64,000 nucleotides of DNA, from positions 100,006,001-100,070,000 of the forward strand of contig JAGIQG010000009.1 of the NCBI GenBank assembly GCA_024679065.1. Direction: 5' to 3'. Under the pieces are notes generated by a model. The model was given only the letters and a program-made list of their open reading frames with translations, made no database searches and was not told the origin of the DNA. Below, piece by piece: positions 10,701-31,089 of this stretch; positions within the stretch are counted from its first letter, which is position 1, and every line of letters begins with the position of its first letter. This stretch comes from Sphyrna mokarran. Its lineage: Eukaryota. The translations under genes and the position numbers were made by a program.

Positions 10701-12240
10701 CATCATTGGTGTTTCTCAGACTGAATAATTATATTCAAATTGACACGTATCTAAATATCCAGCCAATCAATTCGACACATATCCACTTACACAACTCATC
10801 TATAGTGCACATTATGTTCAGCAACATGCAGTCCCACCCACTCAGCAATAAAGAGACCAGCCAGCCAGAATCGTTGTCAACTATCCGAACTCACCCATTG
10901 ACACGCCTATCTATTGGTCTATTTCACCCTCTGATCCCCTTGTACATCTCTCTCATATTCAAATTTGAAAATCATCAGTGTCACATATTTTGAAGGAATG
11001 CACCGGAAAGACATACTCACTAAACATGTATCCACATACCTACTTCCCTCCCACCCAGGTACGGGTAGGCAACTATGACGCCCACCGTTCGGCATTACTC
11101 AACGATGCAAAGAACTACAAAATTAATAGCATCCAGCAATGCCTAACTTACATACTCATTGATCCAAATACAACATCTATCCACTTATCGACCATTCATA
11201 GGATTCGATTGCAACATCTACTGCCTACTTTCATCCCTGAAAGTAGGCAGTCAAGTGGATAAAGTTCTTAAGAAGGCATATGGAGTCTTAGCTTTTATTG
11301 GTAGGGGGATTGAATTTAGGAGCCGCAGCATCATGTTGCAACTGTACAAAACTCTAGTGCGGCCGCACTTGGAGTATTGTGTGCAGTTCTGGTCCCCACA
11401 TTATAAGAAAGATGTGGAGGCATTGGAGAGGGTACAGAGGAGGTTTACCAGGATGTTGCCTGGTATGGAGGGCAGGTCCTATGAAGAGAGGTTGAAGGAT
11501 TTGAGGTTGTTTTCGTTAGAAAGGAGGCGGCTAAGAGGGGATCTTATTGAAGCATATAAGATGATTAGAGGTTTAGATAGGGTGGACAGTGATAGCCTTT
11601 TTCCTAGGATGGAGAAAGCTAGCACGAGGGGACACAGCTTTAAATTAAGGGGTATGAGTTATAGGACGGATATCAGAGGTAGGTTCTTTACTCAAAGAGT
11701 GATTAGGGCGTGGAATGCCCTGCCTGCAGCTGTTGTAGATGCGCCAAGTTTGGTGGCGTTTAAGAGGTTAATTGATAAGTATATGGAAGAGAAGGGAATG
11801 GTTTAGTTTGGAGGGGCATTGCTTTTTATTTTGGTCGGCACAACATCGAGGGCCGAAGGGCCTGTTCTGTGCTGTAATGTTCTATGTTCTATGTTCTATC
11901 TCCTATCATCCTTCTATTTCATCCATATACCTACATAGGCCAAGCATTCGTCGACTAATTAACCAATTAACCAATATCCAACAGCAAAGTCTCCTATCCT
12001 CCTTCCTGTCAAATTCTCCACATAGTCCAACCACAAAAGTAGCCTACACGTTTGAACACATCACTCACGATGCACATATAGCAATCTACAGACTTCAACT
12101 ACCTACAGTCTTGCACCGCCACAACCACGTTCCACATAACTTATTTACATATTAGCTACCTGACATTCTTTATCCAACTTCACACCAATAAGACTATCCA
12201 TTCACTAACATCACATACCTCTTGACATATATATTCTCCA
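7780..12240. repeat. Long G-poor, C/A-rich low-complexity tract, interrupted by CR1
   Basis: Same composition and polarity as 130-1550. Confidence 0.55.
11234..11898 (+). mobile_element. Young CR1/HER1-like LINE 3' fragment (ORF2 C-terminus still open)
   Basis: ORF 11159-11806 contains LYKTLVRPHLEYCVQFWSP, LFSLERRRLRGDLIE and TRGHSFKL. It is followed by a 3' UTR and a (gttctat)n tail. Confidence 0.95.
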
Positions 12241-12339
12241 GGTGTAAGCATTAGTTAAACGATTCATGTAACATTCGGACCTCCAGATCTACTAAGGGAC
12301 CATTTCGGTGAAATCAGCCACATAGCCATAACACTGTAA

Positions 12340-12362
12340 CGGGAGTAACTACGACTCTCTTA
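12340..12362 (+). other. 28S rRNA fragment (sequence just upstream of the R2 insertion site)
   Basis: cgggagtaactacgactctctta matches 28S CGGGAGTAACTATGACTCTCTTA at 22/23 positions. No other rDNA flanks it. Confidence 0.9.
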
Positions 12363-12506
12363 CTCTTCGGTGGGGGAGTGGGAGAGTCATGGCTACAGTA
12401 GCTGTGCGAATCTTGTCGCTTTTGTAGCACAGCGAGTTGCGCCTCCTCGATGGCCCCGCCGGGCAACATCGCCGCTACTCCACCTGCGGTGATGGCTGAA
12501 GCGACT
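12340..12506 (+). ncRNA. HDV-like self-cleaving ribozyme of R2 type (unit 1)
   Basis: P2 agttgc 12435-40 pairs with gcgact 12501-06. P3 is gcc/ggc around L3 tcctcgat 12444-51. P1' cccgcc 12455-60 is complementary to 28S GGCGGG. GGGCAACA follows as in HDV. P4 is catcgccgc 12467-75 with gcggtgatg 12486-94. J4/2 gctgaa carries the putative catalytic C at 12496. The first two P1 G residues are missing in this copy. Confidence 0.85.
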
Positions 12507-12571
12507 GTCCAAGGAGCGACGCTGATGTAATTGCACGTCTATCTGTGCTCAGTCAGACTGCAATTACAAAC

Positions 12572-12738
12572 AGGTGTTTGAGATGGGCTAGTATCCATTC
12601 ATGCGTTAAGGCCCCTTTAAATAGCCGATCTCAGTAGCTGTGCGATTCTTCTGGTTTCTAGCGCACAGTGAGTCAATCCCTTCCGCGGGAGCCACCTGGT
12701 ATCGTCTCCGTGGGCACAGGAGATGGCATTCCATGACT
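12572..12738 (+). ncRNA. Degenerate HDV-like fold (unit 2)
   Basis: P1 aggtgtt 12572-78 with gccacct 12691-97, followed by GG. Two J1/2 hairpins as in unit 1. P2 agtca 12671-75 with tgact 12734-38. P3 tccc/ggga. P4 tcgtctcc/ggagatgg. J4/2 is atypical. Confidence 0.55.
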
Positions 12739-12753
12739 GACCGAGAAACTAAT

Positions 12754-12958
12754 AGCGGGGGCGACTCATGCTGGGACCACGACGACTACCACCGGACTGC
12801 CAGCCAGGAGTGGTATTGTTGGAATGGTCTCCAGTATGTTTCGCATGACTGTGGTTTTCTTGGCGTTCTAGACCACAGTGAGTCAAACCTGACCGAGGTC
12901 CCGCAGGGTATTCAGGCCTTCAAGCTGGCAGGTGAATGGTCCTGAAGTGAACTTGACT
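12754..12958 (+). ncRNA. Degenerate HDV-like fold (unit 3)
   Basis: P1 gcggg 12755-59 with cccgc 12900-04. Two J1/2 hairpins. P2 agtcaa 12881-86 pairs perfectly with ttgact 12953-58. P3 acc/ggt. P4 ttcagg/cctgaa. J4/2 is gtgaac, with T at the catalytic C position. Confidence 0.6.
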
Positions 12959-13729
12959 GGTCGAGAACTGCCAACACGCTTCTATACCAGTAAACCCGGT
13001 AATTGTGAAAGAAAAAAAAAATGTTTTGACATGTTTCCCGGTGATAGTTGGTGATCTGCTGGTGGATGCGCTCACGCCTATCAAGGTAGTAGAAACACCT
13101 CCGTGACCTCCTGCCCACACGACCGGCCTTGAGGAAAAGGCGCATAGACCTGTACCTGGTGTGACGCAATGAAGGGATGCGGTGCCCCGTCTCGTTCCTG
13201 ATGGTTGCTGCCAGATGTTGACGACAAATTACCACGCCCCGAGGGGTTGGGCGTGGTCGACAGCGATGGGCGCAGCTCTCGGTGTTGCGCGAGCGAGTTT
13301 CATGCCATGGTCGCGTTTCGGCAGTGTAGTTTGTTCGTTGCGCGGTTGTGTCTCCTAATAAATGAAAATTCATTTTGTATCAAATGATGATTTATGGGTA
13401 AACGGCTTGAGGCTGACGAGCAAAAACTAACCTGCACGTCAGGTGCTCCCGAAGGTATGATTCAATCTGCTTGTCTGCAATTATGATAGCTGTTGCCGCA
13501 TCGTTGAGGTTCACTTTCCCGTTTCCACCAACGTCCTACGTCTGTGATAACATCTGCTGGATGTCACTCCGATTCCATTCAGAAGTGCACGACGCATGTC
13601 GACGAGCGACAATAAAACTGGGATAAGACGCTGTCACGAATGTCTCTTAAAATATGTATTTCACTGACGCAACTTACATATATGCAGCAGAGTAATTTTC
13701 AATTACCGAGATCACGTCACACATTGTGC

Positions 13730-25331: not shown

Positions 25332-26102
25332 TATGGTGAGAGATCACCCGGAAAATTGAAGTCCGGAAGGAGCGGAGGAGGCAGTGGTCTGACCGGGGTC
25401 GAGAATCCCAAAGCCGGCATTCTGACGACAAGGTAAGCAGACTTGCATGCATGTAAATCCTTGTCGTCGGAAAAGGGATCTCGAGGTCCGGCATACCCGG
25501 TTCTCTGCCAATCATAGATCTCCCCTACTCAAAAGATACCCTGCGTGGATAAAATTGAATTGTGTAGAATTTTTGGGAGACTGAGTACGATTTGAAGGGT
25601 AGAGTTTTGCATGCAAAGCGTGTTATGAATGCTGTATTGTCTGTGAATTGGTAAAACGCGAGACAATGAAAAAGCAGAACGCTAACGGAAGCAATTAGGT
25701 TAGTCGAGCGGGTTGGAGCGGGATTCCAGGTTACAACTTGCCCAAGGAGAGTAAGTGTAGGAAGGCCTGCCAGTCCGAACTTACCCAGGACCTCGGATAA
25801 AGGACGTCAACCGAGAGAAGGAGATATCTGTGAGAGATTGATCTCCTACCTAATACAGTTGTACAGTTGTTAGGGTTACTAAAGCACAAATCAGTAGAGA
25901 AAGAGACAATTAGTTGGACGTGTGACAAAGGGCTGTAAGGGACCAGCCTGTGATGAATGGTTCAGAACAGCGGTGCAGGGATTGATGGTGAATGTGGGAC
26001 TCAGGACATACTCAGAATAGTGACGAACAGCTTAGAATAACTGCAGTAACAGATTCTTCTGAGCAGTAGTGTTCGCACACATTACCTAAAAAAAGAGAAC
26101 TA

Positions 26103-28513
26103 ATGAAAGCAGTTGGAGGAGAAGTTAGGGAGTGGCATAAAGGCGAAAAAGATGCTCTGTTGAGAAAGATTACACATATAATTAATTTGGATGAAGTAAG
26201 AAACGAGTGGCCCTACGTGAACTGGGAAGGAATAATAAGCAGAAATTGGATAAGTGAAACAATAACAGAGACGTTAATAGAATTAATAAAGGAACCCAGA
26301 TCGCGTAGGGCTTTAATACACATAGACGAACAAGTAAAGGCATATTATTCTTTAGCAAGAGAAAGAAGAATATTGCCAGGGAGAGGGAAAACAGGGAAGT
26401 GGATATCAGAACCCCGGTTAGAAGTACAGGTGATAGTAAGAGAAGCGCAGTGGGCGAGTGAACAGGGGATTGGTCAAGAAAACACAGTGTATTGCGTAAT
26501 AATAACTATAATACCAAATTCAGACAAATTAAACAACAGAATTCATAACAATAGTTCAAGAATACAGACAATGATAAGCAAGGCTAAAACACCAGTAGAA
26601 ATACTCGGGGATAAGTTTCCAGCCCTTAGAGGAGATATAGCATACATCTCCAAAAAATGGACTAAAAGAACAAACAAATCAAATACGCAATGGCCAGAAG
26701 GGGGCACATGGTGTGTGGAGAGATGCGAGGATCAGAAAGGATTATTGAAGAATTATAAAATAAAAGATAAATCTAAAAAAAGAAAAGAAAAGCGAGAAAA
26801 AGAACTGGAGATACTGGCATTGTTTGAAAAAGAAGGGAAAGAAAGGAGAAGGGTATGGAAGGGAGGTAGGATGCAAATGCCGGTGCAAGTTCAGGAAAAG
26901 GAGGGATTGAAAGACCCAAATGCAGCTCCACTTCCATATCCGGAGGAACGGAGGTCCACTGGGTTATATCCAATCATAACAGGTACAATGAATTTTGAAG
27001 GAGAGTATGATGTAAAACAAATAACAAAAGAAGAATAGGTAGCACAAGAGACAGAAAGGAGACAAAACATTGAGGAAGAAAGTAAAAAAGTAGAAGAGGA
27101 TTTGGACAAAGTCATCCAGATGAGACAACGGTTGGAAGAGGAAGTGAAGATGGTAGATGACCTAGAGTGGGCAAAGAAAGTAATGGAAAGGAAGGGAGAT
27201 GAGGAACAGGCAAATGAAGGTGGGTATGATAAAAGGGAAAATAGAAGGAAACAGGAAAGCGGGAGAAGAGACAGAAATGTAGGCGTAAAGGACAACTGGA
27301 AGCAAAAAGGGGACTGGGACTGGAAACGTCCAGGAAAAGGGAGACAGGAGGAAATAGAAAGAGAGACAGAGGGTGGTAGTGAAGAAGAAGGGGATTTATT
27401 GGCAGCATTAGCCCCACAGAGGAGGTCACTACGGGTAAGAAGACCACCAATAAAATACCCAAACGAAGAACAAAGAGAGGAAAATATATTCCCTATGGTT
27501 CTGAAGGGTAGCAGACTACAAGATATTCCCTGGTCAGGTCAGGACTTGCCTAATTTGATTAGTGAATTACCAAATATTCTGGATGGGGCCGGAAGGTAGA
27601 TTGGACAGTTGGAAGCTGGAATGGTGGGAAAGAGGATGGCACTGGGTGACATCAAAGCCCTCCTGGCAAAGGTGTTGGGAATGAATCAAATGACTGAAGT
27701 AGTGAGACTTGCAGGCATCCCTGCGGCAGCACTTGACCCAGATGTTGATGGAGTGCCAATAGACTTATATCGCCGTGACATTTGGCAGGCACTAAGAGGC
27801 ATGTACCCCAATCGAGTGGACATGAAAACACTGAAGGGGGAGCCATTGGGTGAGGAAGAAAATGCGGCCACATATGTAGAAAAACAGCTGAAAAGATGGA
27901 GAAGGGACACTGAGAGGGACATTCTGACAGATTCACTGATCAATTCCATGTTCCGAGCAGCAATTTTAGAGGGTCTACTGACTTCAGCTAAGTCTAGATT
28001 GGAGGAAATGGTAGGCCTGGAGTCAAAAAGCTATAGAGAATTCTTAGACCATGTCATCCACGCGGTAGAAAGACACTGCAAGGAGGAAAAGAATGCAGAC
28101 AAGCCGCTGAAAGATGTACAGTGCAAACGTCTCCAAGCTGAGTTGGAGAAATTAAAAACAAAGAAAAGCAGAAATTAAAAGAGGATTCCACACCCAAGAA
28201 AATTGCACTGATGGTGGCTGACCTAATGATCGGAGAGATACCCATACTACCGCAAGGGAGAAGTGGAGGGGGAAGTCAGCCCATCATAACCTATAACATT
28301 TCTGGTTTCCCACTGTCCATGACTCCAGGAGGTTACAATCCAAATTACCAAAATAATTGGAAGCCCCAGAACCAAAATAACTGGAATGGGAAAGGACAGG
28401 GGCAGGGAAGTGGTAGACTACCCTATCAGAACCAGAAGGGACAAAGTCAAGGAAATAATCAAGGTCAGAAACAGGGACCGCCACCTGGTCCTCCAGGTGT
28501 ATGTTGTGGGTAA
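26103..28513 (+). pseudogene. gag: ERV gag, interrupted, with an N-terminal extension
   Basis: MA-like WPEGGTW, late-domain-like PLPYP, capsid IPWSGQDL..LISELP, and a Gln/Gly-rich NC ending at a truncated knuckle (GVCCG). Stops at 27036 and 27597, frameshift near 28180. Confidence 0.9.
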
Positions 28514-30894
28514 CAGGGAAACAGGATTTGCAACATCAGTGCTGATGCAGGAAAGTTGTAAAGGCAGGAAAAGGCAGGCCATAACTTATTACAGCACCAA
28601 GCTAGACAATGTGGCTATGGGATACCCCCCGTGTTACCAAGGCCTGGCAGCAGCCTGGTGGGCATATGAAAAAGCAGCCGTGGTCACGATGGGATATCCA
28701 ATAAACATACATGTATACAATAAGGTAGCTGAACTAATCGAACAGGGGAGATTTGTACTGATGCCTGCCAGAATCCATCACTACCGGATGCTGACCACTT
28801 TTCCAGATATTACGATAGTGAGATGTAACAGGGTTAATCCAGCTGACTATATACCATTACCTCATGAAGGAGAGGAGCATGAGTGTGTAAGAGAAGCAAA
28901 AACATTCATAAAACTAAGAAAAGACTTAAAAGCAGAAAAACTAGACACAGAAAGGAAAAGAGTATTATATGTTGATGGCTCGTGCTACAGGGATCATGTA
29001 GGAAACCATGCAGGGTATGCTATAATCGAACAGAAAGGGGAGACATATGAAGTGTTAGAGGCAGAAAAGTGTGAGCAACCCTGCTCAGCCCATTTAGCAG
29101 AACTCAAAGCATTGACCAGAGCATGCGAGTTGACAGAAGGGGAAATAGTGGAGGTATATACGGATTCAGCTTATGTGCATGGGGTGTGCCACCTATTTGG
29201 AGCAATATAGAGACAGAGGGGATTCATAAAAAGTGGAGGAGGACCAATACAGCACAAAAGTCAAATAAAAACATTAATACGAGCAATGATGGGTCCAAAA
29301 GAATTGGCCATAATCAAATGCCAGGCGCATGAAAAGGGAAAGGATAATGTTACCAAGGGAAATGCTAAAGCTGATGAGGTAGCCAAATAAGTATCAGGAT
29401 GCATCATGACCGCAATAGCCCCAGTCGAGGTGAGACTACACCTAGGACCAGGGATGGGGAGCGTAGATCCCCAACACATCCTAGAAGATGTGGTGCAGTT
29501 ACAGGAGGAAGCCACGATAGCTGAAAAATCAGTGTGGAAAGATAGACGAGCAGTGCAGGGTCAACATGATAGAGTGTGGAGAAACGGGGAAGGGCTGGTC
29601 GTAGCGCCTACATCATTACTAACCTTACTATTCAGCGAAGCACACGGAGTCGATCACTGTGTAAGGGGGGAAGGTGACCAGAAAAATAAAGAAGGAAGGA
29701 TTCTGGTCACCTTACCTGCAGAATTCAATTGATTATATGTTAAGTCAGTGTGAGGTATGTGCCCAGAATAACATCAGGAAAGGTATAACTGCTCCTATAG
29801 GGCACATAGCAATTCCTGAAGGGCCGTTTAAGCACCTATGCATGGATTATGCAGACATGGGGAAATCAGTGAGAGGAAAGAGATATATGTTGGTGATAAT
29901 TGACAGATTCAGCAGATGGATAGAAGCAACACCATCCAAAGACCAAGGGTCTGGAACGGTAATTAACTTCCTGTCAAAAGAGATCATTCCAAGATTTGGC
30001 GTACCCACTCAATTGAGTTCAGACAATGGATCCGCATTTATCGGAAGGGTACTGAGAGAAACTCTCTCAGCACTACAGATAAAGCAGAAGTTTGGTTGTG
30101 TGTACCATCCCCAGTCTCAAGGAATGGTGGAGAGGGCAAACGGGACCCTCAAGGCCAAAATAAGTAAAATTTGCAGTGAGACAGGGAAAAATTGGATTGA
30201 TGCCCTGCCACTAGCACTAAAGCAATGCAGAAGTCAAGAAAACAGAACCACGCATTTAAGTCCACATGAAACGATGACATGAAGTGTAATGCCGGTACCA
30301 AAAATTAGGGGATCGGGAGGTCCTACACTAGAACGTTTAGATCAAAGCACAAAAGAATATATACAACAATTAACTATTATACACAGAACTATATTTGAAC
30401 ACGAGAAAGCCAAGGAGGAGGGGAATCCGGTGGCAGAACACCAGATCAAACCTGGAGATCGCGTGTATATCAGAAAGTTCCGGAGGCGCTGGGATGAACC
30501 CAGGAGAGAAGGACCATTTGAAGTTATCCAAGTCTCTCCTACGGCTGTGCAAGTAGAAGGCAGTACACTGTGGTATCATTTAAATCATTGTACCAAAACA
30601 GTATCAGAGATAGAGATTGATGAGAGAGCTGAAAGTACCGAAAGCCTGGACAGGAGTAGCGATGAGGAGGAAGGAGAGCCAGGGGAAGGTCCTTCTAGCC
30701 AAACACAGGGTCAGGATAGGAATGCAGAAATTGAAGGTAGTAAGAACGATTTTATGTCTCAGTTGGTTGATGATCCAAATGTCCAGCCTGATGCCCTTGG
30801 CCAAGGCTCAGGAGGTAATGGGGAAAGAGCAGAAGCCTCTTTTCCCACCTGGGACTTGGGGACCAACTCCCTCCCAGACTTTCTTGACCTGTAA
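28514..30894 (+). pseudogene. pol: ERV pol: connection/RNase H and integrase only
   Basis: YYSTKLDNVAMGYPPC; RNase H YVDGS..AELKAL..YTDSAY; integrase H2C2 and core MDY..IDRFSRW..SDNGSAF..YHPQSQGMVERAN; GPF motif. Contains stops and a frameshift. No protease or YxDD motif. Confidence 0.95.
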
Positions 30895-31089
30895 CAGGGA
30901 GAAACAGAATGCAGAAAGCCCACAATTAAGGTTAAAAGAAAATAAGAACGTATTGAGATTAAAAGTGCAAGAACCCTTAGGCAGAATACTAAGAGAAAGA
31001 AAAAACAAGATGCTTGAAAAAGATATTAGCCCACCAAGGCGGATGGGTCATAAGAGATCAATAGACGCAACCGCAATCTGAGTTCGGTC

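Follow-up and report, generated by a model that had tools for sequence, protein, structure and literature searches.

The question raised by this locus is what an element of the R2 kind does with three HDV-like ribozyme folds standing in a row at its 5′ end, a single one being all that the autonomous R2 of the same genome carries. The window, i.e., the whole 64,000-nucleotide stretch of Sphyrna mokarran DNA that was analysed, had been described in an earlier note as containing such a triplet, and the features on which an answer depends are the following:

12338..13652, + strand: the whole non-autonomous and probably R2-dependent element (subfamily A, ~1.31 kb), a decayed copy outside rDNA, with boundaries common to 30 loci and no ORF.
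12338..12506, + strand: unit 1, an HDV-like ribozyme, its core complete in the family and damaged in the window copy.
12340..12362, + strand: 28S rRNA-derived head, R2 position -28 onward (match to the true 28S at L080/L114).
12402..12432, + strand: CUGUG/CACAG hairpin of unit 1, with paralogs at 12638-12668 and 12849-12878 and the same stem in the R2 ribozyme.
12527..12567, + strand: linker hairpin between units 1 and 2, predicted by RNAfold in 6/7 subfamily majority rows.
12572..12738, + strand: unit 2, an HDV-like paralog with a nearly invariant core.
12754..12958, + strand: unit 3, an HDV-like paralog whose P1 is still 28S-like.
12960..13235, + strand: middle region common to subfamilies A, B and C (alignment, blastn).
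13236..13597, + strand: 3′ region of the A/D/E type, boundaries approximate.
13598..13652, + strand: R2-like 3′ tail with a short A run at its end (tails compared).

The three units are true paralogs. A covariance model built from 14 sequences (12 unit-1 copies and two R2 ribozymes, with units 2 and 3 excluded) recovers unit 2 at an E of 2.3e-6 and unit 3 at an E of 3.5e-5 in the 64-kb window (E-values that are to be read as rough), the next-best match there having an E of 0.37. Out of 3000 shuffles per unit, a hand-made HDV descriptor, tuned after the sequence had been viewed, is satisfied by 60 for unit 1, 20 for unit 2 and 80 for unit 3 (0.7–2.7%), and it finds three cores in 0/500 shuffles of the whole stretch. 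A single descriptor match is weak, as a further 14 clusters turn up at other places in the window, both strands counted. Rfam reports unit 1 only, and weakly at that (RF00094, 31.1 bits, E 0.22, against a gathering score of 50), and the region folds far better than its shuffles (z -6.06, 0/20). The helices of unit 1 are P2 (12435-40/12501-06), P3 (12441-43/12452-54), P1′ (12455-60), GGG (12461-63) and P4 (12467-75/12486-94). A nested P1–P4 scaffold is present in unit 2 (P1 12572-77/12692-97, P2 12671-75/12734-38, P3 12677-80/12687-90, P4 12700-09/12719-28) and also in unit 3 (P1 12755-60/12899-904, P2 12881-86/12953-58, P3 12887-89/12897-99), where P3 has only two pairs in subfamilies B and C. 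The earlier note's claims of three tandem HDV-like folds at these positions, and of a triplicated ribozyme module of the R2 type, thus stand above chance by both the covariance model and the shuffled controls that it had itself called for; its gcc/ggc pairing for P3 of unit 1 is correct for the window copy and is no family trait, the majority being GCC/GGU.

The element that houses the units is not the 5′ end of a coding R2, as had been supposed, since it is non-autonomous and the autonomous R2 has a single ribozyme followed by an ORF. No ORF was found in the window copy or in the other copies, and identity as the 5′ UTR of a coding R2 was rejected because the fixed tail is reached within 1.65 kb and without an ORF; pseudoknots that initiate translation of the element's own ORF, another of the options proposed at the outset, fall for the same reason. 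An AUG-stop pair 3′ of unit 1 was considered and dropped, being present in A, D and E and absent from B and C. A first look yielded 543 candidate loci in the element's own genome, dispersed over the chromosomes, of which the 40 scored are 87–93% identical; the boundaries at 12338 and 13652 recur at 30 loci with unrelated flanks (the exception being one group of copies inserted at a single site of a common LINE), and the tail is present in 25 of these 30, with lengths of 1265–1345, the range of the family being 1.27–1.65 kb. The 115 copies gathered, older relatives included, were sorted into seven subfamilies (E, D, A, C, B2, B1a and B1b), whose majority rows are 74–98.5% alike pairwise, and the divergence of copies from their own subfamily majority falls from 12.2% (E) to 0.8% (B1b), from which repeated and recent activity of the lineage follows. 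The window copy, a member of subfamily A, differs from the majority of that subfamily at 32/645 positions (5%) and has lost the first two G of the head/P1.

An exact search with the 28S-derived head returned 66 matches, namely, 65 dispersed relatives outside rDNA and one true 28S, and insertion of the element is not confined to the 28S R2 site. A few copies have 28S flanks, and L120, with 28S on both sides, suggests source copies in rDNA. Some copies were observed to be inserted into or beside the 28S-derived head of another copy (L046, L074, L228/L229), and many element copies and one R2 copy share an insertion site within an abundant LINE (L005, L007, L008, L009, L012, L017, L019, L029, L166), which is likely a secondary target; this LINE, host to many copies, we take to be CR1/L2-like. 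One error-rich copy recurs with the same printed ends and blast rows at three loci on two contigs (L102, L103, L107), which may reflect a segmental duplication or an artefact of the assembly. Elsewhere in the window, a C-terminal piece of a LINE ORF, for which no Pfam match was found, is followed by a short tandem tail at 11147-11900, upstream of the element and unrelated to it, and the + strand is strongly skewed towards purines at positions 26001-31000 (AT skew 0.27–0.37).

At the other end of the element, the 3′ region of B and C is replaced by a sequence that is 74–79% like the young R2 3′ UTR (last ~540 nt), whereas A shares with R2 only the last 55 nt, as judged by eye. Since the 3′ halves of A/D/E and of B/C differ, the three-fold module must have outlived a tail swap. 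The tail at 13598..13652 is likely the site recognised by the R2 protein. A piece at ~990-1170 of the element in L085 (B/C) is also found in the R2 3′ UTR (L115 7035-7235) and elsewhere in the genome; it resembles a tRNA-headed V-domain SINE, and no tRNA was found by ARAGORN in five loci.

The R2 protein in question is likely borrowed from a young autonomous R2 dispersed over the chromosomes of the same genome (G000; e.g., L115, L156-L167), ~5 kb long and with a 1355-aa frame. The ORF that marks an autonomous R2, with zinc fingers, Myb, RT and endonuclease following the ribozyme, is absent from the element, an R2 ORF being present in this separate family. R2 has 613 candidates in the genome, 150 of them scored, several of which have 1355-residue open frames on chromosomes; its protein (P0001), which came to light when the 28S sequence that lies beyond the R2 site was searched for (15 matches, among them tails of the element family and one R2 endonuclease domain), matches solved vertebrate R2 proteins (E 1e-42 to 1e-43). 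The head of R2 is a single ribozyme followed by the ORF in 11/13 long copies, the other two being one cut inside the ribozyme and one without a visible head. Common to R2 and the element are the 28S head, the 3′ tail and the CUGUG/CACAG hairpin, the last of which, like P1′, is found in both unit 1 and the R2 ribozyme. The tail is followed by TAG in 16/25 copies of A, 15/29 of B and 18/29 of R2, the background being 1.2%, and the TAG(C) target of R2 is relaxed, true 28S following only 1/29 tails; R2 elements with relaxed targets have been reported from invertebrates, and the one described here is likewise relaxed, yet with the 28S head and the TAG(C) preference kept. Alternatively, a second, older R2 lineage may exist that carries three folds itself.

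The three units differ in what their cores would permit. Unit 1 very probably cleaves in the family, where its core reads L3 UCCUCGAU (U-C-C), GGG and J4/2 GCUAAA; P1–P4, P1.1 (L3 CC with GG) and the catalytic C in J4/2 are found in all seven majority rows, C12496 is present in 112/115 copies, and element copies start at the predicted unit 1 cut. It is likely the releasing ribozyme, and the window copy, having GCUGAA in J4/2 instead of GCUAAA, is a damaged representative. Unit 2 has an invariant L3 (UUCCGC, 6 nt), keeps the GG and has a J4/2 of UUC(C/G)(A/G/U), in which C12731 is present in 111/114 copies one base off the usual catalytic place: J4/2 opens, right after P4, with a U, where PMC10879173 places the catalytic C. 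The J4/2 sequence is C-N-A in subfamily A and most D copies, the A being replaced by G in B and C and mostly by U in E. By its sequence alone unit 2 is ambiguous; it is predicted, with fair assurance, to lack efficient cleavage, although C12731 and the invariant L3 would be compatible with slow cleavage. Unit 3 has an A.A at pair 1, GA/UA/AG rather than CC at L3 positions 2-3, which leaves P1.1 absent, and a J4/2 of GGAA with G at the place of the catalytic C, substitutions of which are treated as inactive in the same source (PMC10879173); it is predicted to be inactive and very probably does not cleave efficiently. This leaves one predicted cutter per element copy.

The same distinction can be read from the 5′ ends of genomic copies, as cleavage at unit 2 or 3 would yield an RNA that still carries the R2 tail and whose copies should start at that unit. 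No copy starts at unit 2 among 100 matches listed of 135, none at unit 3 among 100 matches listed of 165, and none at +1 of unit 2 or 3 among 99 B2/C copies anchored ~900 nt inside, although ~1/4 of possible truncated copies are hidden from each of these censuses by the leading letter of their pattern. Of the anchored copies, 81 extend to the head region, and the end points of the other 18 are scattered. The census covers B2 and C, and A only by an indirect pattern filter, the unit-2 pattern of subfamily A giving one intact copy and no truncated one while needing a non-A at -25, a requirement that drops intact A copies (6/7 matching loci). Genomic 5′ ends therefore point to unit 1 only, and they show the absence of mobilised products, not of all cleavage. 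The element is not truncated less than R2 (18/99 over ~0.8 kb versus 4/30 over 1.5 kb, the 30 R2 copies having been chosen by score). Five of the 18 truncations lie just 3′ of unit 1 (B2 reference positions 172-205), upstream of the linker hairpin and unit 2, a cluster that is not significant (p 0.065). The role that had been suggested for the extra units as additional cleavage sites freeing 180-230-nt RNAs finds no backing here, and neither do retrozyme-like circles, because no copy starts at units 2/3 and unit 3 is without the catalytic C; the other suggestion, that of non-catalytic pseudoknots, is supported, as is the conservation of both units.

That conservation supports the view that selection has maintained the folds of units 2 and 3. 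In the seven majority rows, invariant columns make up 122/152 of the core, J4/2-P2′ and hairpin of units 2-3, on a par with the 56/74 of unit 1, against 132/310 in linker 1, the J1/2 hairpins of units 2-3 and their P4, all of these being columns that are not independent, since the subfamilies are related. Double changes are seen in two columns of unit 2 P4 and two of unit 3 P2, two pairs of unit 3 P4 are doubly changed between B1 and B2, and three of the six P1 pairs are changed on both sides between units 1 and 2; compensatory changes across homologous copies, which the earlier note had asked for, are thus present in both units, and its claim of a fold kept by selection is supported. Insertions/deletions notwithstanding, all subfamilies are predicted to form the long J1/2 hairpins, the first five pairs of CUGUG/CACAG are identical in 7/7 majority rows in all three units and in R2, and all three units persist in seven out of seven subfamilies. 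Unit 2 P1, P2 and P3 are nearly unvaried in the family and give little covariation signal. Some pairs are broken, namely, the first of unit 3 P3 in the C and B majority rows, the top pair of unit 3 P2 in D, B2 and B1a, pair 6 of unit 2 P1 in E and A, and pair 12704-12724 of unit 2 P4 in C and B2, while another stem is preferred by RNAfold over unit 3 P4 in E.

The reading that we favour, with a probability of about one half, is that of an ORF-less element that borrows from R2, in which unit 1 is the cutter, and units 2 and 3 are conserved, non-cutting docking copies aiding mobilisation in trans. Binding of the RNA tail by the R2 protein and priming of reverse transcription by it are established for R2. 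In the element, read-through transcription would cross the insertion, unit 1 would cut the RNA at the 28S-derived G (the -28 site), the R2 protein would bind the tail and prime reverse transcription at TAG(C)-type sites, and units 2 and 3 would serve as extra docking surfaces. The docking role as such, be it for the R2 protein or for the translation machinery making it, is put forward with some reserve, and even more tentative is its sharper form, in which units 2-3 would be disarmed “pseudo-ribozymes” making up a multivalent array that lets the parasite RNA outcompete the R2 transcript for the R2 protein. The Alu dimer, a non-autonomous element with two SRP-like arms, has duplicated RNA folds that help to capture a LINE protein (its promoter being Pol III and its partner L1), an analogy only, as its fold is unrelated to that of the element. 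The triplication itself likely arose by template jumping or by a nested insertion into the 28S piece of a second copy, because in D and E a likeness to the 28S head is still visible in the P1 of unit 3; present-day examples of nested copies are L046 and L074. Docking is favoured because all four versions of the ribozyme have the CUGUG/CACAG stem fixed in sequence, with P1 and P4 varying or covarying, and it is favoured over a back-up exonuclease barrier because a barrier should leave copies starting at units 2-3. Counting against it is the report that R2Tg cuts DNA without needing its 5′ UTR (PMC12222951).

The close rival, which we consider somewhat unlikely, is that units 2-3 are kept only as compact folds that prolong the life of an uncapped RNA, as a nuclease shield or back-up barrier, and no other non-catalytic role has support in print. 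R2-mediated insertion increases when the template bears an HDV-like fold at its 5′ end, an effect that has been proposed to act via stability (PMC11331408, PMC12222951), and both the excess of folding over shuffles and the group of five truncations immediately before the linker hairpin and unit 2 would suit such a role. The benefit described in these papers, however, concerns the terminal fold only, where a change of the catalytic C is strongly inhibitory (PMC11331408); reverse-transcriptase stalling at unit 1 fits the truncations equally well; and RNAs rescued at unit 2 or 3, with unit 1 missing, should have yielded copies starting there, which were not found. Less probable is that units 2-3 are relics, paired only so that their strands leave the folding of unit 1 undisturbed: the P1/P1′ of unit 3 resemble those of unit 1, making a strand swap possible, and the P2 strands are identical between units 2 and 3, yet loop and junction bases are conserved as well, 0/7 subfamilies have deleted units 2-3, and SIDEs are expected to shrink to a minimal sequence (PMC3414825). 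The least probable is a slow or conditional ribozyme in unit 2 (perhaps also unit 3) that frees short RNAs or keeps the spread of its own element in check, as the core bases retained by unit 2 (the invariant L3, GG and J4/2 C, with C-N-A in A and most D) are outweighed by the U at the catalytic-C position, the G or U replacing the J4/2 A in B/C and E, the missing C in unit 3, the persistence of all units in seven subfamilies and the want of any copy starting at unit 2/3 even though the product would retain the R2 tail.

As docking copies or otherwise, units 2 and 3 are what sets the element apart from its known kind, the Drosophila R2 SIDEs, which are ORF-less, carry a 5′ HDV-like ribozyme and an R2 3′ end, are likely mobilised by the R2 protein and form an old lineage diverged from its partner, with some copies at the 28S R2 site, as here (Eickbush and Eickbush 2012, PMC3414825). 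The R2 SIDEs have one ribozyme and reside in 28S genes, whereas the element has three folds, hundreds of chromosomal copies, a swapped 3′ half and a vertebrate host (PMC3414825); what is new is, in all likelihood, the retention of two probably non-cutting paralogs together with wide dispersal in a vertebrate. The -28 position of 28S is the commonest R2 ribozyme cleavage site (Eickbush 2013, PMC3774820), and P1′ of unit 1 pairs with 28S -28 just as in the R2 5′ ribozyme described there; in B1, B2 and C the 28S head is duplicated and the inner P1 mutated, as the model of that paper predicts. Its accessible text describes duplication of the 28S piece and, unlike the case of the element, no duplication of a whole ribozyme or retention of non-cutting paralogs (PMC3774820). 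The bipartite LINE partners NARTc and RIME are similar in being dispersed, non-autonomous combinations of LINE 5′ and 3′ ends with tail exchange (PMC5786205, PMC3185411), but belong to other clades and, in the available text, have no stacked ribozyme folds (PMC5786205). Retrozymes are likewise non-autonomous retroelements with repeated ribozyme motifs (PMC7229834; bioRxiv 10.64898/2026.07.22.740005), theirs, as far as these sources go, being tandem-repeat hammerheads with circular RNAs, whereas the element has HDV-like folds, one predicted cutter and linear R2-type ends. No description of the element was found in the literature searched, and the family may be listed in Repbase, in Dfam or in the supplements to PMC5035012 and PMC13188248.

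Should the docking role of units 2 and 3 prove true, the R2 ribozyme fold would have a hitherto unknown binding partner, centred on the invariant CUGUG/CACAG hairpin. The persistence of these units suggests that the shape of a ribozyme has been reused as a structural part, providing a natural case of a ribozyme fold retained after the likely loss of its chemistry, an RNA counterpart of a pseudoenzyme. It also sets the structural role of the R2 5′ ribozyme apart from the catalytic one, an issue that R2-based gene insertion work has raised. The family itself offers the picture of a vertebrate R2 that spreads beyond rDNA together with its passenger, and its young copies, nearly identical, allow a direct test.
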